DNA of 64,000 nucleotides from Candidatus Poribacteria bacterium (GCA_965197475.1 CBDANF010000003.1:896001-960000), one strand, 5' to 3'; positions 46,089 to 60,597 are shown, counted from the first letter of the stretch. Notes: a model not told the origin generated them from the letters alone. Numbers and translations: made by a program.

Positions 46089-47074
46089 GGCTCATGTAAA
46101 AAGTAAGTGCTATTTTTTCAAAGTTATGTTAGCGTGTTACCTATGGACTTTCCAATACAATCTCTCCTGGATGAAGAAAAAACTCAAGCGTGGGTGTTGG
46201 ATCATTTCCACCTTCAAGGGCTGTGTTGCCCAAAATGCCAAGCGAGCGTGGCGGAGGCACGCAAGTTCCGTCCGACTGAAACAAGTGGTCTACAAGTGTA
46301 TCGCTGCAAACACTGTGAGAGCATCTACAACCTCTATACCGGGACGGTCTTTGCTGGCACGCAGTTTCGTCCCTCACAGGTCGTTCTGCTTTTGCGCGGT
46401 GTCTGTCAAGGTGTTTCAAGTGCACAACTCGGGTGTGAACTGGGTCTAAGTCGTCAAACCGTTCTTTCTATAAGACGTAAACTCCAAACTTCGGCAGAGC
46501 AGATACAACCCGAAGCTGCTTTACCTGATGCTGAAGTCGAAACAGATGAGATGTTTCAAAACGCCGGTGAAAAAGGCGATAAGCACGTTGATGCTTCGGA
46601 TCCGCCGCGTCGGCGTGGCAATAAACGCAGGGGACATGGGACTTATGACAATGATCGTCCGCCTATTGTTGGGACGAAAGGTCGCGAAAGCGGTCTCCTG
46701 AGATTACGTGTTGTGCGGCACACCGATTCTGCGACGCTTTCAACACACGTTCATCAGTGGACGTTGCCGACTTCAACGGTGTATACGGATGGTTGGCGTG
46801 GCTATAACCGTATTCAGCGCGCCCGTGAGATTGTTCTCCATAAGGATGGCGAGTGGGCAAGAGACGCAGACGGTGATGGTCTTTACGAGATCCATACAAG
46901 GACGATTGAAGGTGCCTGGACGACGCTGCGAAACTTCCTTCGTCCCTTTCGTGGCGTTCATAAAAAGTTCCTCGCCGGTTACGTCGCAATCTGTGAGTTC
47001 GTCATGAATCTAAAAGCTGTCAGTGTTGATTTTATAGCAAAACTCGTCAAAAGCACTTACTCTTGACATGAGCG
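46089..47074 (+). mobile_element. IS1595-family IS (986 bp)
   Basis: IRs GGCTCATGTAAAAAGTAAGTGCT and (reverse complement) CGCTCATGTCAAGAGTAAGTGCT; 8-bp TSD ACTTTTTT at 46081..46088 and 47075..47082. Confidence 0.95.
46143..47066 (+). CDS. IS1595-family transposase
   Basis: Zn ribbon CPKC..CKHC, HTH, ETDE..YTDGW..TIEG.W. Confidence 0.92.
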   Translation: MDFPIQSLLDEEKTQAWVLDHFHLQGLCCPKCQASVAEARKFRPTETSGLQVYRCKHCESIYNLYTGTVFAGTQFRPSQVVLLLRGVCQGVSSAQLGCELGLSRQTVLSIRRKLQTSAEQIQPEAALPDAEVETDEMFQNAGEKGDKHVDASDPPRRRGNKRRGHGTYDNDRPPIVGTKGRESGLLRLRVVRHTDSATLSTHVHQWTLPTSTVYTDGWRGYNRIQRAREIVLHKDGEWARDADGDGLYEIHTRTIEGAWTTLRNFLRPFRGVHKKFLAGYVAICEFVMNLKAVSVDFIAKLVKSTYS

Positions 47075-47925
47075 ACTTTTTTTAGCATAGGCTAAACCAC
47101 GATTTTTATACGCAATCGCACCATTGGGATTTAATTCAATCGCTTTGTTATGGTCTTCAATGGCGCGATCAACTTCTCCTTTGTCCTTGTAAATCACACA
47201 TCGATTGTTATATGCACTTGTATAATCAGGTTCCAGTTCAATAGCTTTGTCATAGTTTTGCAGTGCCATATCCATTTCACCCATGATACTGTAAACCTTG
47301 CCGAGATTGTAATAAGCACCAGCATTATTCGGTTTTAGTTCTATTGACTTTTTAAGGTCTGTGAAGGCTTTTTCAATCTCACCTTTTGCGCCGTAAGCAC
47401 TTCCTCTATGGTTATAGGCCTCAGCATAATTTCGGTTCAACTCTATTGCTTTATTGTAGTTTTTAATAGCGAGATCTAACTCACCTTTTCTGAAGTAAGC
47501 ATTTCCGCGATTGTTATATGCACTAGCATCATCTGGGTCTAATTCTATCGCCTTGTTGTAGTCTTCAATGGCGCGATCAACTTTACCTTTACTGAAATAA
47601 GCTGTCCCGCGGTTGCTGTAAGTCATAACATGATACGGATCACATTCTATCGCCTTGTTAAAATCTTTGATCGCTCTGTCAACCTCACTGTTGCTGAAAT
47701 AGGCTGCCCCACGGATGTTATATGCCATAGCATAATTTGGGTTTAGATTTATTGCAGTGTCATAGTCTGTGAAGGCTTTGTCAAACTCGCCCTTTCTGTT
47801 GTAGGCATTTCCGCGATTGTAGTAGACAAGGGGACTATCTGGGTCAAGTTCTATTGCTTTGTTATAATCTTTCGCAATGAGTAGTTTTGGACTTGAGAAA
47901 AATTTTAAAAAATCGCTATAAAGCC

Positions 47926-48091
47926 TTGTGTCCACTGGGTTTATATGGTATAATATAGATAAGAAAATAGGGGGTTGGTAGCCCCCTAAATGAACACAAA
48001 AAGCGAGTTGCTTTTTGACGGTTCTAATCTTATCTGGTATTATATCAGAAATCCGTCAGAAAAAGCAACTCCTATTTCAAGGAGTTATCTG
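47926..48091 (+). promoter_or_regulatory. transposase promoter and structured leader with overlapping antisense promoter
   Basis: TTGTGT-17-TATAAT (47926..47954); hairpins; anti-SD AACTCC versus SD GGAGTT; conserved in copy B. Confidence 0.65.
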
Positions 48092-48973
48092 ATGGATTTG
48101 TTGAAGGTGATGGAGCGTTTTCCCGATCAAGAGAGTTGTATTTCGCATTTAGAGAAGATTCGGTGGCGAGGTAAACCTGTGTGTCCGCATTGTGAAAGCG
48201 ATCATATAGGAGAACGGACAGAAACAGAAATCGGTCGTATCGGTCGTTGGAACTGCCACGAGTGCCAAGTGAGTTTCAAGGTGACGTGCAGGTCGGTGTT
48301 TCACGGGACAAAGATAGCGTTACAGAAGTGGTTTTTGGCTATTTCGTTGATAACGAATGCGAAGAAAAGTTTGTCAAGTCATCAACTTGCGCGCGATTTA
48401 GACTTGAATCAAAAGACAGCATGGTATATCATGACTCGTATCCGTGCTGAAATGGCAAAGAAAGGTAACGTGCTACTACAAGGCATCATAGAGGCAGATG
48501 AAACTTACATCGGGGGTAAACCTCGTAAGCCTAATAAGAAGGAAGACCACGTGCCTGCCAAGCGTGGACGTGGAACAGAGAAAGACGCTATTATCGGGGC
48601 AGTACAGCGGGGCGGGAAAGTTGTAGCACAACTCGCTAAAGATTTGACAGGACGGACTATTTTAGACTTTATCCGAAGAGTCGTCAAAGTTGAGGATTCG
48701 GAGTTGATGACCGATGAGTATAAGGCGTATCTCGCTATCGGCAAGGAGATGAAACACCATATCATAGATCATCAAACGCAATTTGTTGAGGGTGATGTCC
48801 ACACAAACACAATTGAGGGGTTTTGGAGTCTACTCAAACGAGCTTGGTATGGAAGTCATCACCACTACTGGACTAAATATACGCCCCTGTATGTAGCAGA
48901 GGCGTGCTATAAATACAACTATAGGAGCATTGACAGTATCTTTGATAAGTTTGTTAATGAAAGTATGCGGTGA
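48092..48973 (+). CDS. IS1595-family transposase (copy A)
   Basis: CPHC..CHEC, EADETYIGG, TDEY, HTNTIEGFWS; ATG after AAGGAG matches the start of copy B. Confidence 0.95.
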   Translation: MDLLKVMERFPDQESCISHLEKIRWRGKPVCPHCESDHIGERTETEIGRIGRWNCHECQVSFKVTCRSVFHGTKIALQKWFLAISLITNAKKSLSSHQLARDLDLNQKTAWYIMTRIRAEMAKKGNVLLQGIIEADETYIGGKPRKPNKKEDHVPAKRGRGTEKDAIIGAVQRGGKVVAQLAKDLTGRTILDFIRRVVKVEDSELMTDEYKAYLAIGKEMKHHIIDHQTQFVEGDVHTNTIEGFWSLLKRAWYGSHHHYWTKYTPLYVAEACYKYNYRSIDSIFDKFVNESMR

Positions 48974-48982
48974 TGGACACAA

Positions 48983-49255
48983 CTAAAGGTATGCCTTATC
49001 AATCTTGTTCTTTTTGTCATCAGGATTTGAGGGAAAATGCTGTGGAAGTTCAAAAGTTGGCTTTCCATCTTTCAGAGCATCGATCATGTCAAGAGCAAAT
49101 TCCAACCTCTCATTGTCCGTGTCAAAAGGTTTCTGAATCACTACGCGAAAATTTGTATCAAGTTTTACAAGGGCGAGTTCTACAAAACTCTCTGTATGTA
49201 AGGCTAAAAGTGAAAAATCAACAGGATCGGAAGGCGGCTTGAATATTACCCACAT
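48983..49255 (-). CDS. cargo hypothetical protein (90 aa)
   Basis: AAAGGAGA RBS within the conserved spacer; fills the gap to the transposase stop. Confidence 0.65.
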   Translation of the reverse strand: MWVIFKPPSDPVDFSLLALHTESFVELALVKLDTNFRVVIQKPFDTDNERLEFALDMIDALKDGKPTFELPQHFPSNPDDKKNKIDKAYL

Positions 49256-49311
49256 GGGTTTAGTCTCCTTTGGGGTTAGAGGGGACAGAGTCCCCTCGTT
49301 GGTTGGAATTG

Positions 49312-49701
49312 CTAATACCCGTATGGAGAATCAGCAGCTGAAATTAAAATTATCCAAAGTCCCACCATAGTGCCAGTTCCAATAACACATCCTATTGTAG
49401 CATGTGTTATTTGGTCGTTTTTCACAAGTTTTTGATAAATGCTTGTGTAATAAGCAACATATTCTGGTGATTTTCCAAGCAATTTTTCTGGTAGTACCGT
49501 TGGTGTGACAACATACGCAATTAACATACCGGTAACACCAAGTAGACAACCAACAGTTCCCCATATTTGAGTGTTTGCAAGTGTTGCATCACGTCGTGCA
49601 TCAAATATTGCTTGCGCAGCATCACTTGTTTGTTGTGCAAGTGTGAGATATGGCGTAGTGAATAACATCACAACCATTATAAACGACAAAGTTTTCATCA
49701 A
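49312..49701 (-). CDS. cargo secreted/membrane protein (GKSPEY family)
   Basis: Signal peptide, AAAGGA RBS; homologous to 6329..6802. Confidence 0.8.
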   Translation of the reverse strand: MMKTLSFIMVVMLFTTPYLTLAQQTSDAAQAIFDARRDATLANTQIWGTVGCLLGVTGMLIAYVVTPTVLPEKLLGKSPEYVAYYTSIYQKLVKNDQITHATIGCVIGTGTMVGLWIILISAADSPYGY

Positions 49702-49768
49702 TGTTCCTTTTGTGAGGTAAAATGTGTATGTAGGGGATCAAAAGACCCCCTACATGTTTGCAAGCGGA

Positions 49769-49900
49769 TTATTTACACCGCTTGTGAGGTTTGACAGTTT
49801 CTTTCACCGTTGTGGCGGGACGGCGTTTGTCCGTGCCTTTGGGAAGGAACCGTCCATCTTTGGCATCGCGTACACGCGTGCCAGTGGCTTTTTTAGCCAT
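49769..49900 (-). CDS. cargo small basic protein (43 aa)
   Basis: GAGG RBS; MAKKATGTRVRDAKDGRFLP..RRPATTVKETV resembles a recurring mobile-element small-protein pattern. Confidence 0.65.
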   Translation of the reverse strand: MAKKATGTRVRDAKDGRFLPKGTDKRRPATTVKETVKPHKRCK

Positions 49901-50007
49901 AGTATACCTCACTTTGCTTGAGATAAATTGGTGCATAGCGTATTTCCAGTGCGTTATGCACTGTTCAAGCATATAAAATTGATACGTTAAACGGGTATCG
50001 TTCGTAG

Positions 50008-50084
50008 GTTCGTTTACACCTTTCTATGGGTGAGGGCAGGACACAACACAAGGAGTGTTGCGATAGAAATCCTGCCCAACGAAC
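50008..50084 (-). ncRNA. putative structured RNA (three-way junction with bulge-loop pseudoknot), copy A
   Basis: GUUCGUU|GGGCAGGA|UUUCUAU|CGCAACAC-uccuu-GUGUUGUG|UCCUGCCC|u|CACC-cAUAGAAA-GGUG|ua|AACGAAC, just downstream of TTGACA-18-TATACT. Confidence 0.7.
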
Positions 50085-50168
50085 TTGAGAATAGTATAAC
50101 ATGGAAAGAATTTGAGTGTCAAGTGAAAAATTTGAGAAAAAATTTCAAGTCCAAAACTACTCATTGCG

Positions 50169-50270
50169 AAAAACTATTCCAGTTATTACACAAACAATGA
50201 CACCGATCCAAAAAAATATTGAAATGATAGCTGGTGTTATCATTGTTTTAAAATTTAGAAAATCTTTCAT
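50169..50270 (-). pseudogene. DUF4282-like membrane protein 5' remnant, cut by element A
   Basis: MKDFLNFKTMITPAIISIFFWIGVIVCVITGIVF ends exactly at the IR. Confidence 0.7.
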
Positions 50271-57297: not shown

Positions 57298-57425
57298 GCA
57301 AAAGAAAACATCCAAAAGACTAAAAACAATAGCAAAAGATATCGCAATGAGTAGTTTTGGACTTGAAAATTTTTCTCAAATTTTTTACTTGACAAAATCC
57401 TGCCAGTATAGTATCCTATTAACAT

Positions 57426-57507
57426 CACGAAAACTTTGGTAGAGAATGTTACCCGCGTCGCAAGGCGCGGTCTCTACCATAACCAAGTAACATTGGAAAG
57501 TTTCGTG
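57426..57507 (+). ncRNA. putative structured RNA (three-way junction with bulge-loop pseudoknot), copy B
   Basis: CACGAAAaCUUU|GGUAGAGA|AUGUUAC|CCGCGUC-gcaa-GGCGCGG|UCUCUACC|auaa|CCA-aGUAACAU-UGG|AAAGUUUCGUG, after TTGACA-17-TATCCT (57389..57417). Confidence 0.7.
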
Positions 57508-57628
57508 TGTATAGTTCTCGTGAACCAAACAGTTAACATCATATTTATAGAATCAGCGACATAATAATCGCTTTGCATTTAGCTTATTACATCGCTGAAA
57601 CCACTCCCTTTTACACAAGGAGACTATT

Positions 57629-58003
57629 ATGTCTTTGTTTTCAGATTGGAAAGAACGCAGGAAACACAAAGATAGAGATAAGTGGCTTATAAGGGAATTC
57701 CCTCGTCTTGCATTGACACATTATGAAACCTTGCGTGATCTAAACCCTTCTGATACTCCCAAAAAGCAATTGTATGAAACGATTATTAGAGGGTTTGCTC
57801 TCACCTTTGGTGTGCCCAATGAAAAGCGCGATGAATTTACCGAATGCATTTTGCATACAGCAACTCTTGGTGAACCATCTGAACCTTTTGGTTTACGTAT
57901 GATTGTTGTCTCACTTATATGCTCGACATGGAGCTTAAAGAGTGAACTATCTATTGCTGTAGCAATAACCAGCGTGTCAGAAGTAATCCCCGAATACTTA
58001 TAA
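57629..58003 (+). CDS. cargo hypothetical protein (124 aa)
   Basis: AAGGAGA RBS; inside element B. Confidence 0.7.
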   Translation: MSLFSDWKERRKHKDRDKWLIREFPRLALTHYETLRDLNPSDTPKKQLYETIIRGFALTFGVPNEKRDEFTECILHTATLGEPSEPFGLRMIVVSLICSTWSLKSELSIAVAITSVSEVIPEYL

Positions 58004-58058
58004 CAACTCTGACAACGAGGGGACCCTGTCCCCTCTAACTCCAAAGGAGATTAAAATC

Positions 58059-58331
58059 ATGTTTTTCGTTGAATATACCGAAAATAATGAAAGAAAAGCA
58101 TTAAACTTGGCTATGTGTCAGAGAATTGAAACTGAAGAACGCCACATAAGCGCAAAAAGTAGTTTCTACATCTACATACATCACAAAGAACGCGCAAAAA
58201 TGGTGTTAGAATTCAAATCAAAAGAGGAAATGTTAACCACTTTTGATAATTTTATGGACGCACTCAACCGGTGTCAAGCTCACTTGTTTTCCCAGAATGT
58301 TTTGTCTGAGGAACATTATCGGCAGTCCTGA
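58059..58331 (+). CDS. cargo hypothetical protein (90 aa)
   Basis: AAAGGAGA RBS within the conserved 43-nt spacer. Confidence 0.7.
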   Translation: MFFVEYTENNERKALNLAMCQRIETEERHISAKSSFYIYIHHKERAKMVLEFKSKEEMLTTFDNFMDALNRCQAHLFSQNVLSEEHYRQS

Positions 58332-58493
58332 ATTCTTCAACATACCTGTGAAATGCATCGATGAAATATTCAGCAACGATACAAAATTCTTCAAAGAATT
58401 CTGTTTCAGAAAGAGCAGATCTTGAAGGACTATCACTTTTCTTATCTAGTCCGTGCTGACTCAATACATCTGCCATAGAATCTCTAACTTCTC

Positions 58494-59375
58494 TCACAAC
58501 ATACTTTCGTTGACAAACTTGACAAACAAGCTGTCAACGCTCCTATAGTTATACTTATAGCACGCTTCCGCCACATACAGCGGTGTGTATCCTGTCTGAT
58601 AATGGTGATGCTGTCCATACCAAGCCCGTTTGAGTAGTGACCAGAACCCTTCAATCGTGTTTGTATGTGTATCACCATCAGCAAACTGCACCTTGTGGTT
58701 GATAACAGCGTGCTTCATTTCCTTTCCAATAGCGTTGTAAGCCTGATACTCATCGGTTATTAGTTCCGAGTCCTTTAGGTTTACAGCACTCCGAATAAAC
58801 TCAAGGATAGTGCGTCCTGTGAGGTTATGTGCCACCTGTGCGACAACCCTACCCCCACGTTGCACTGCTCCTATTATAGCAGTTTTCTCCGTTCCTCTGC
58901 CACGTTTATGTGGTTCATCATCTTCACGTTTGTTCTTTTTACGAGGTTTACCGCCAATATAGGTCTCATCTGCTTCAATGATACCTTGTAGTAAAGCCCC
59001 GCCTTTCTTTGCCATTTCAGCACGAATACGTGCCATCATAAACCATGCTGTCTTTTGATTCAAGTCTAAATCGCGCGCCAGTTGATGCCTTGACAAACTT
59101 TTCTTCGCATTCGTTATCAACGAAATAGCCAAAAACCACTTCTGTAACGCTATCTTTGTCCCGTGAAACACCGACCTGCACGTCACCTTGAAACTCACTT
59201 GGCACTCGTGGCAGTTCCAACGACCGATACGACCGATTTCTGTTTCTGTCCGTTCTCCTATATGATCGCTTTCACAATGCGGACACACAGGTTTACCTCG
59301 CCAACGAATCTTCTCTAAATGTGCAATACAACTCTCTTGATCGGGGAAACGTTCCATGACCTTGATTAAATCCAT
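58494..59375 (-). CDS. IS1595-family transposase (copy B)
   Basis: Same motifs as copy A. Confidence 0.95.
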   Translation of the reverse strand: MDLIKVMERFPDQESCIAHLEKIRWRGKPVCPHCESDHIGERTETEIGRIGRWNCHECQVSFKVTCRSVFHGTKIALQKWFLAISLITNAKKSLSRHQLARDLDLNQKTAWFMMARIRAEMAKKGGALLQGIIEADETYIGGKPRKKNKREDDEPHKRGRGTEKTAIIGAVQRGGRVVAQVAHNLTGRTILEFIRSAVNLKDSELITDEYQAYNAIGKEMKHAVINHKVQFADGDTHTNTIEGFWSLLKRAWYGQHHHYQTGYTPLYVAEACYKYNYRSVDSLFVKFVNESML

Positions 59376-59434
59376 CAGATAACTCCTTGAAATAGGAGTT
59401 GCTTTTTCTGACGGATTTCTGATATAATATCAGA

Positions 59435-59503
59435 TAAGATTAGAACCTTCAGAAAGCAACTCTGCTTTTTGGGTTAATTGGGAGGCTACAACCTCCCTTT
59501 TTT
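59435..59503 (+). ncRNA. putative antisense RNA to the transposase leader
   Basis: TTGCTT-18-(TGn)TATAAT at 59399..59428 and terminator GGGAGG-ctacaa-CCTCCC-TTTTTT at 59480..59503. Confidence 0.55.
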
Positions 59504-60597
59504 CTTATCTATATTATACCATATAAACCTTGTCTACACAAGGGTTTATCACACTTTTTCACATGTTTTTTGCAAGTCCAAAACTACTTACTGTGAAAGA
59601 TATTATTCCTATTTCAATTGAATGGGGCGAGAGTGCAAAACAACCTATAATAAAATTTTCTGACGGTGGGCAGGTATTAGGTTCTTGTATCCACTGTATG
59701 AATCCGCCTTGTATTGAATATACAGGTAACGAAATTTACTCAGAAACATTTCGGGAGTTTCCTTCAGATAGAAACTTAGAAGTATGTCCAACTAAAGCAA
59801 TAAACTGGCCTCAGGACAACGATTCCCCTACAATAGATAGTGAAGCATGTATCTTCTGCGGTATATGCGTTAGCCGCTGCCCCGTTGCAGCAATTTACCT
59901 TGACTCGGAAGTAGGAACAGCTATATTAAACGATCAACCAAACGAGTACTTTCTACTTCAAAACGAAGAAGTTTCTGAAAAGGTTCAAAAACCTTTACTT
60001 CAGAAGTTTTCGCAAATCTCTGAAAATGGAATTTTCCTATTAGAAAACGAACACATTCTCCAGCAGTTCTTTGAAAAATTTAAGTCCGTCGCTACTGGAC
60101 AAAGTACCCAGTTCCCTAACCATCTTGTTCGCAACTTAATGATAGAGTTAGGTATTAATACATTGATGAGTCGGCGTGGAGACACTAATATTCGAATGGA
60201 CATTGTTTTTGAACAAATTGGAAAAACTTGCGGAACATGTGAAGTGGAATTAGGCAATGGAGTACTAGATGCGCCCAGAAACCTACTTGATAACGTTGCA
60301 GTTTTGGTATCAAGATACAAAATTAGCAAAGAGAACATTTTGCCGTTAGTCGTGACTTTTTCATTACCTAATCACCGTTCAGAATATTGGAATGTAATAA
60401 AAGATATAAAACAAGTGTTAAACCTAAAAATTAATTCTCTGACTGTTGGGATGTTAGTTTTGTTGGTTTGGAACAGAGTTAAAGTATCTCTCGATTCAAG
60501 TGAGATCTTTTATGCTGACTCAGAACAATATTCTGTAAGGGAGAAATTTGAATCTGTACTTGGAAGAGAACTAAATGTTACAATGGGTTATCCTGGG

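Follow-up and report, generated by a model that had tools for sequence, protein, structure and literature searches.

C4 of phages P1 and P7 and CI of phage P4 are small structured RNAs made from the leader of the operon on which they act, RNase P maturing C4-type RNAs into discrete species. They complement a downstream ribosome-binding region, and their short complementary segments change together and set specificity. In IncI-alpha and IncB plasmids, translation of repZ or repA depends on a pseudoknot and is under antisense RNA control, the short pairing sequences defining incompatibility. For the rpsO operator, a pseudoknot and a double hairpin have been described as being in equilibrium (PMC3985624). 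The 5'UTR of IS200 is reported to be processed into a regulatory sRNA (PMC5435999), TnpB guide RNAs are placed at the 3' end of the gene, running into flanking DNA (PMC10691335), and Rfam 15 includes IS605-orfB-I, HEARO and c4-2 (PMC11701678).

The RNA described here is encoded at the cargo ends of two insertion sequences of a Candidatus Poribacteria bacterium. Like C4 and CI, it is a leader RNA with a sequence complementary to a downstream initiation site, and its complementary segments co-change. The sequence-only reading of this DNA, which preceded our analysis, had called it loosely reminiscent of these phage RNAs. The logic is indeed shared (an anti-target in the leader, a target downstream), but the Rfam C4-type models do not match, within the fold its complementary segments bind one another and are not displayed in open loops, and the hosts are insertion sequences, not phage immunity regions. 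IS10 (fold-back inhibition, RNA-OUT) and IS200 (5'UTR stem-loop, art200) offer a second likeness, in that a 5' cis structure on a mobile-element mRNA can hide the initiation region. Theirs are simple hairpins or antisense pairs on transposase mRNAs, whereas the leader RNA, found before tnpB, combines a three-way junction, a 7-bp pseudoknot and a putative decoy of the initiation region. With repZ/repA and rpsO it would share the principle that pairing of a loop with a distant site in the leader decides the use of the start region; their pseudoknot includes the initiation region and is controlled by antisense RNA or by protein S15, whereas here it lies inside an upstream domain and has no known antisense RNA or protein partner. 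Finally, omega-RNA (TnpB), HEARO (upstream of IscB) and IS605-orfB-I (RF03065) are likewise structured, pseudoknotted RNAs encoded in the same elements, and the HEARO and IS605-orfB motifs, like the leader RNA, adjoin a nuclease gene. Unlike the guide RNAs, the leader RNA is found at the 5' end, wholly inside the element and with no adjacent guide: its own promoter precedes it inside the element, the gene follows it, and it is distinct from the 3' hairpin of the elements.

Architecture of the leader RNA in elements A and B

The window, that is, the whole 64,000-nt stretch of DNA that was analysed, contains two mutually inverted IS1595-family insertion sequences, A (~47872-50172) and B (~57342-59598). 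Both encode a DDE_Tnp_IS1595 transposase with a zinc ribbon, are bounded by terminal inverted repeats and carry small passenger ORFs; the Pfam domains and the inverted repeats, together with 8-bp target duplications at several genomic copies, place both in the family. At their passenger ends, 53 nt comprising the repeat and the TTGACA box are 96% identical and are followed by total divergence. A and B further share a 50-nt stretch (90%) and the transposase region (82%). The features of both elements are collected in Table 1.

Table 1. Positions of the features of elements A and B, counted from the first letter of the window
Feature	Positions	Strand	Basis or remark
B terminal inverted repeat, cargo end	57342..57369	+	inverted-repeat pairs I2, I6; same end at ~30 paired genomic elements
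B sigma-70-like promoter TTGACA-17-TATCCT, inward-pointing	57389..57417	+	promoter scan, 10/12 matches
B leader RNA, B/D subfamily	57426..57507	+	fold; R1 score 88.6 bits; covariation on alignment A6
B P1	57426-57437 with 57497-57507	+	
B P2	57438-57445 with 57471-57478	+	
B bulge (key) AUGUUAC	57446-57452	+	exact reverse complement of GUAACAU
B P3 hairpin, GCAA loop	57453-57470	+	
B P4	57483-57485 with 57494-57496	+	
B loop partner of key, GUAACAU	57487-57493	+	
B imperfect second copy of P1 3' strand	57513..57522	+	AGUUCUCGUG vs AGUUUCGUG (57499-57507)
B second hairpin, 5' of ribosome-binding site of first cargo gene	57553..57598	+	-15.9 kcal/mol, z -4.65
B first cargo ORF, 124 aa	57629..58003	+	no Pfam family
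50-nt stretch common to A (49252-49301) and B	58013..58062	+	G+C hairpin and ribosome-binding site of next ORF; pair I3, 90%
B second cargo ORF, 90 aa	58059..58331	+	no Pfam family
B IS1595-family transposase, DDE_Tnp_IS1595 and zinc ribbon	58494..59375	-	Pfam E 2.5e-37
A terminal inverted repeat, cargo end	50145..50172	-	inverted-repeat pairs I2, I4
A promoter-like TTGACA (50122-50117), 18 nt, TATACT (50098-50093)	50093..50122	-	read by eye
A leader RNA, A subfamily	50008..50084	-	fold; R2 96.7 bits for identical genomic copies; covariation on alignment A9
A key UUUCUAU	50069-50063	-	exact reverse complement of AUAGAAA
A loop partner of key, AUAGAAA	50027-50021	-	
A P1 3' strand, ACGAAC	50013-50008	-	
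A second copy of P1 3' strand, ACGAAC	50000..50005	-	2 nt past first copy
A second, weaker stem	49916..49970	-	z -2.34; 5' of 43-aa basic-peptide ORF (49900-49769)
A IS1595-family transposase	47990..48973	+	Pfam E 3.9e-36

When folded with ViennaRNA, the leaders of A and B (~80 nt) gave an identical nested architecture of P1, P2, a 7-nt bulge, P3 and P4. The computed energies were -34.9 kcal/mol for B (z -6.54) and -34.6 kcal/mol for A (z -6.56), with none of 200 shuffles as good in either case, and the opposite strands were less stable (-28.0 and -32.8 kcal/mol, respectively). In both RNAs the bulge, which we call the key, pairs with the last 7 bases of the 8-nt P4 loop and so closes a pseudoknot. 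The promoter-like sequence of B ends 8 nt 5' of P1. Much of this had been seen in the sequence-only reading: the common fold at both places, the exact bulge-loop complementarity, the TTGACA promoter directly upstream, the GNRA loop of B (GCAA, in P3) and the bias of G-U pairs towards the promoter strand all held on calculation. Its statement that the primary sequences are nearly unrelated held as well, A and B representing two subfamilies that MAFFT cannot align. A second long hairpin, said to precede the first cargo ribosome-binding site in both elements, is clear in B but weak in A, and the cassette spacer that it mentions, the 50-nt stretch, is real and shared, but its hairpin is only modestly better than shuffled sequences (z -2.95 and -1.87). 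The second hairpin of B recurs with small changes in one relative (L115).

Database comparison gave no name for this RNA. No Rfam family matched: Rfam 15 yielded no match at gathering scores on the window, and nothing relevant on the two RNA regions at E up to 10 (C4, riboswitch and ribozyme families included), on four tnpB/GIY-YIG loci at E up to 1 or on four mini elements at E up to 0.1. IS605-orfB-I (RF03065) and RF02033 did not match the window or the four tnpB/GIY-YIG loci (E up to 1), no family model of the small self-cleaving ribozymes (hammerhead, twister, pistol, hatchet, HDV-like) matched at E up to 10, and ARAGORN found no tRNA or tmRNA gene between 47000 and 60500. In the literature we found no description of a 5' structured RNA in tnpB or IS1595 elements, although supplementary motif lists could hold one. 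The leader RNA is a real, abundant and apparently undescribed structured RNA family.

The surroundings of the RNA hold further structured sequences. The cargo ORFs in the window have no Pfam family, the sole match to cargo being DUF805 in a type E element. An accessory-protein family upstream of the transposase is not supported, as the 90-aa ORFs of A and B have no BLASTP similarity. In L116 and L128, the 43-aa peptide gene of A and its leader recur together behind other RNA variants. Such genes, encoding lysine/arginine-rich peptides of 43-47 aa and preceded by their own conserved leader (in A at 49769-49900, minus strand), recur behind different RNA variants, often with DUF805 or another small membrane protein next. 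The leaders of the transposase genes (47897-47989 in A, 59376-59568 in B) are themselves structured and conserved. They contain a long helix and a G-rich hairpin in which element types differ by compensating changes (GGGGGUUGGUAGCCCCC versus GGGAGGUUGUAGCCUCCC), and a predicted AACUCC/GGAGUU pairing would occlude the transposase ribosome-binding site; Rfam gave no match for them within the window. Just beyond element A, inside a 292-aa ORF (47057-47935, minus strand), a 102-nt unit is present in seven tandem copies (47105-47871; 63-72% alike).

Distribution, covariation and genetic setting

Copies were sought in the 5.7-Mb genome with a strict descriptor that specifies structure only and has no sequence requirement. 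It found 25 places, all beside an insertion-sequence end, and none in three shuffled genomes; the reversed genome (9 matches) is not a valid control, since any helix remains a helix when complemented. Among the ~30 paired elements of the genome, the RNA comes in five variants, each with its own key. Those of types B and C differ by a compensated change (AUGUUAC:GUAACAU versus AUGUUAG:CUAACAU). In one decayed copy of this genome (L062) bulge-loop complementarity is lost, and across the family a few copies have one mismatch. Nine 1.14-kb IS1595 relatives in the same genome (G000, e.g. C3:1109794-1110932) have a slightly different end, AGUCGUUUUGGACUUG, and carry neither passenger genes nor the leader RNA.

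To follow the RNA beyond this genome, we built a covariance model, R1, from ten B/D-type RNAs. A-type RNAs were misaligned by MAFFT and reached only 9-16 bits with R1, so a second model, R2, was made for that type. R1 matched in 91 of 150 related Candidatus Poribacteria genomes (E up to 0.01) and R2 in 38 of the 150. In a phylum-wide sample, R1 matched in 97 of 151 genomes (E up to 0.001). These matches were confined to two families, f1 (79 of 99 genomes) and f3 (17 of 26, all 17 of one genus); the sample's 25 genomes from seven other families gave none. The organisms that carry the copies are Candidatus Poribacteria, sponge symbionts. Beyond Poribacteria, the exact pattern of inverted repeat plus promoter matched two Bacteroidota contigs, both lacking the RNA.

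The alignments show that the fold is kept while the sequence changes. In the B/D-type alignment A6 (45 distinct RNAs among 53 rows), 95.4% of paired cells are complementary, compared with 78.4% after shuffling and 33-44% in slid controls; none of 500 shuffles reaches the observed value. The covariation score is 0.496, against 0.170 in shuffles. The pseudoknot helix is 98.4% paired, with both-side changes in six of its seven pairs. Over all pairs, G-U combinations outnumber A-C by 55 to 8, which assigns the structure to the promoter strand. In the A-type alignment A9 (30 distinct rows) pairing is 98.4% overall and 98.1% in the pseudoknot. Further copies therefore keep the bulge-loop complementarity while changing its sequence, in both subfamilies, as the sequence-only reading would have it. 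P2, by contrast with this variation, is nearly invariant within a subfamily and different between subfamilies. Fifteen independent copies from metagenome contigs and IMG/VR, found with a degenerate pattern and confirmed by R1, form all seven pseudoknot pairs in 14 cases and six of seven in one (48 of the 57 pattern matches in the metagenome scan were chance inverted repeats). A TTGAC box lies 37-45 nt 5' of the model start in 33 of 36 members.

Two arrangements seen in relatives deserve mention. At G123:C1:5955535-5955692 two RNAs (L147/L157) stand in tandem, 10 nt apart, behind an IS1595-like end, and their keys differ at one compensable position. In relatives G016 and G017 (L031, L048) the same IS1595 end and TTGACA box are followed by a different structured leader of ~120 nt, distinct from the RNA under study, in which GGGUAUCC pairs with the downstream GGAUACCC.

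Outside the source genome, most copies sit at the left end of IS605/IS1341-like tnpB elements, ~45-120 nt inside that end. In many loci an ORF of 373-399 aa begins 12-20 nt 3' of the RNA, and its OrfB_IS605 and Cas12f1-like TNB domains identify it as TnpB (Pfam, tblastn). In the second family a same-strand TnpB match lies within 300 nt downstream in at least 22 of 29 distinct loci. The tnpB copies of one genome have a small left-end hairpin that overlaps the -35 box and shows compensating changes. The sole tnpB gene of the source genome, outside the window (G000:C3:2860500-2862700), adjoins a type-A IS1595 copy and is preceded by a third subtype of the RNA (bulge UAAUGAG, loop CUCAUUA), which both covariance models and the strict descriptor missed; the family is thus wider than the counts given here. 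Some copies precede GIY-YIG genes, five of them on contigs classed as viral by IMG/VR. The GIY-YIG-associated RNAs on viral-classed contigs are L177/L179 (on a 16,394-base IMG/VR contig), L178 and L181-L183, one contig carrying two RNAs. Finally, mini elements lacking any ORF (L262-L270, in several relatives) consist of a promoter, an A-type RNA and ~300 nt of conserved non-coding sequence, ending in a hairpin that is found elsewhere after the tnpB stop codon. They are probably guide-RNA-only derivatives.

How the RNA came to IS1595 elements is suggested by the D type, where the 40 nt 3' of the RNA align to the Shine-Dalgarno sequence and the opening codons of tnpB, though no longer as an intact frame; the alignment scores 20, and the best of 500 shuffles scores 18. 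On the simplest reading of these sequences, IS1595 elements appear to have captured a left-end fragment of a tnpB element, comprising promoter, RNA and first tnpB codons, as a ready-made module, which would now drive the passenger genes of A and B. The cargo-expression system specific to IS1595 that the sequence-only reading had proposed does not survive this comparison, as the RNA elsewhere lies mostly 5' of tnpB, and also of GIY-YIG genes and in ORF-less mini elements.

RNA libraries touch the locus as well. In contigs from four metatranscriptome runs of one study the cargo ends of A and B are covered and the single-copy genes between them almost uncovered; being contigs from a single study, of a multi-copy element and with DNA carry-over possible, they are not proof of transcription, starts or ends. 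Where contigs end at 57387-57402 and at the RNA A borders, element types diverge, and these ends are probably assembly breaks. In two of the four runs contigs stop exactly at the RNA A borders (50008/50011 and 50084), which fits co-existing strains with common flanks and a different RNA core, as in types A and E, and may equally be an assembly effect.

The repeated P1 strand and a candidate translational gate

Most of what we suggest about function is carried by a feature absent from the sequence-only reading, a repeat of the P1 3' strand. At least 5 nt of this strand recur 0-14 nt downstream in 42 of the 45 distinct RNAs, some of the shortest repeats being probably due to chance; in the other three an exact repeat is absent. 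The repeat follows every change in P1, also inside IS1595 elements (examples are AAUUCGUG, AACAACGU, GUAUUGUG, CUACGUUAAU and AAGUAAUGC). Among the 42, the second copy contains the start codon of an ORF of at least 100 aa in 13 RNAs, and the spacer is Shine-Dalgarno-like in 15. The tnpB leaders of the first family thus read copy 1, a GGAG-type spacer and a copy 2 containing AUG (13 RNAs). In the second family, copy 2 (GAAAGNC) ends 6-9 nt 5' of the tnpB ATG, at the Shine-Dalgarno position, in eight script-parsed loci; at the loci outside these eight the repeats are imperfect or the script chose an upstream in-frame AUG. The RNA accordingly stands between promoter and start codon on the sense strand, and a segment of it is complementary, with covariation, to the Shine-Dalgarno/start-codon region.

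The P1 5' strand can close the structure with either copy. The median energy difference between the two closures (a nearest-neighbour estimate that leaves out the pseudoknot) is 1.15 kcal/mol (range -3.1 to +7.0), and 42 of 58 cases stay within 3 kcal/mol, a near-equality that is almost automatic with two identical copies. For one tnpB leader out of five, the predicted most stable fold is already the one in which P1 pairs with the start-codon copy.

We propose, at a probability of about one half, that the leader RNA, native to tnpB elements, acts in cis and switches between two states to gate translation of the first reading frame downstream. The RNA would form the 5' end of the transcript, with its first base at or close to the start site set by a strong sigma-70-type promoter; it folds into a three-way junction locked by the 7-bp pseudoknot between the bulge of the P2/P3 arm and the P4 loop. 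The P1 5' strand would serve as an anti-initiation sequence complementary to two identical sequences, of which copy 1, the P1 3' strand, would be a decoy or mimic, and copy 2, in the native tnpB setting, the real initiation site. Pairing with copy 1 would leave the initiation region free (ON) and pairing with copy 2 would hide it (OFF); the pseudoknot-stabilised core should favour the ON fold. In the cell the two folds would interconvert, and their balance, however set, would control translation.

Copy 2 does not fit this proposal everywhere. In the IS1595 and GIY-YIG settings it misses the initiation region of the first real gene. There it is kept and co-varies, and at most contributes a GUG or AUG that opens a short unconserved frame of 2-49 codons; in B, the GUG at 57520-57522 opens a 14-codon frame ending at 57564, inside the second hairpin. 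Furthermore, since the ORF-less mini elements keep the RNA, control of translation cannot be its sole use. A benefit to the transcript itself, such as protection of its 5' end, is a probable further function of the module, and some hosts may keep the switch only as a vestige.

Key variation, rival explanations and significance

Which parts of the RNA change fastest bears on the main alternative. In 72 close pairs of RNAs, at most 12% different elsewhere and not independent of each other, the four free key positions differ in 48%, P1 in 42%, the unpaired linker in 33%, P3 in 7% and P2 in 2%. The segments that require double or triple compensation thus change fastest, suggesting selection for new specificities or frequent exchange between copies. 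The element-specific 7-nt keys of the sequence-only reading are borne out to the extent that the key is among these fastest-changing parts, with 30 different keys among the 45 distinct B/D-type RNAs; as codes open to a partner they fare less well, every variable segment being paired inside the monomer.

Such keys could act in trans. Leaders of identical elements would pair as kissing or domain-swapped dimers, or bind the initiation regions of sister mRNAs, so that expression falls as the copy number of an element type rises and new keys escape the resident copies, much as in the heteroimmunity of P1/P7 C4 RNAs or the multicopy inhibition of IS10. The pace and diversity of key change are what this reading expects, co-resident types do carry different keys (five types here, and in one genome two kinds of key among otherwise similar tnpB leaders), and the bulge and loop of two like molecules could cross-pair by construction. 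Relaxed constraint or gene conversion could, however, produce the same pattern of rates. Apart from one chance match in type D, the five element types offer the key no second site; within the leader, only the P1 5' strand has a complement downstream, and this strand is paired in the fold. Moreover, the keys of B and C are one position apart, and cross-pairing between them would keep six of seven pairs. Because nothing variable is exposed in the monomer and these two keys are so close, we rank key-specific recognition second and think it unlikely. We scanned element B for an antisense RNA and found no promoter-like site on the minus strand between 57300 and 58100, a further point against recognition. 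RNA-guided target choice was rejected, the 8-bp target duplications of IS1595 copies being A+T-rich and unrelated to the key.

In its most specific form, which we regard as more doubtful still, key and P1 'address' would be self-recognition codes: identical leaders would pair bulge to loop and loop to bulge, and this would flip the leader to its closed state. If so, each element type would count its own copies and throttle its nuclease, new keys would be favoured by escape, and transposons would possess a sense-sense RNA copy-number sensor. We know of no mobile element for which such sensing has been described.

The RNA might instead be a plain 5'-end module, a pseudoknot-locked structure at +1 that protects the message from 5'-end-dependent decay and insulates it, with the P1 repeat a historical leftover and no switching. 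It does stand at the predicted transcript start in every context, before unrelated genes and at the head of mini elements that encode only a guide-RNA-like region, and its sequence varies freely while the fold is kept. A single hairpin would suffice for this purpose, however, and the complementarity of P1 to the tnpB initiation region, as well as the tracking of P1 changes by copy 2, would be left unexplained. We consider it unlikely as well.

An aptamer for a ligand or protein, working as a riboswitch-like ON switch, or a small self-cleaving ribozyme is a good deal less probable. The set of anti-initiation strand, mimic and initiation region does resemble the platform of a translational riboswitch, and the near-invariance of P2 within a subfamily suggests a recognised surface. 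P2 nevertheless differs between subfamilies, the junction and loop bases where ligands usually bind are unconserved, linker and loop columns being among the most variable, and the Rfam 15 riboswitch and ribozyme models stayed silent. Least credible of all is a single-stranded DNA structure of the IS605-type left end acting in transposition: its position inside the tnpB-element end, next to the hairpin over the -35 box, and its retention in mini elements would suit such a role, but IS1595 elements and GIY-YIG loci, which show no IS605 end, retain it together with its promoter, the IS1595 target duplications do not relate to the key, and promoter spacing and G-U bias fit a transcript.

The two-state gate on tnpB translation is the reading we prefer. 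TnpB nucleases, from which Cas12 descends, are widely engineered; to our knowledge, little has been learned of their control beyond the 3' guide RNA. The leader RNA would be a second, 5' RNA of tnpB elements, with hundreds of copies, unusually clean covariation and a long bulge-loop pseudoknot. It would also be a case of a promoter-plus-leader module passed between unrelated mobile elements (IS605-like, IS1595 and homing-endonuclease genes). With its three-part pairing scheme around the start site, it is a compact candidate for a bistable translational gate, possibly one with sequence-coded self-recognition.
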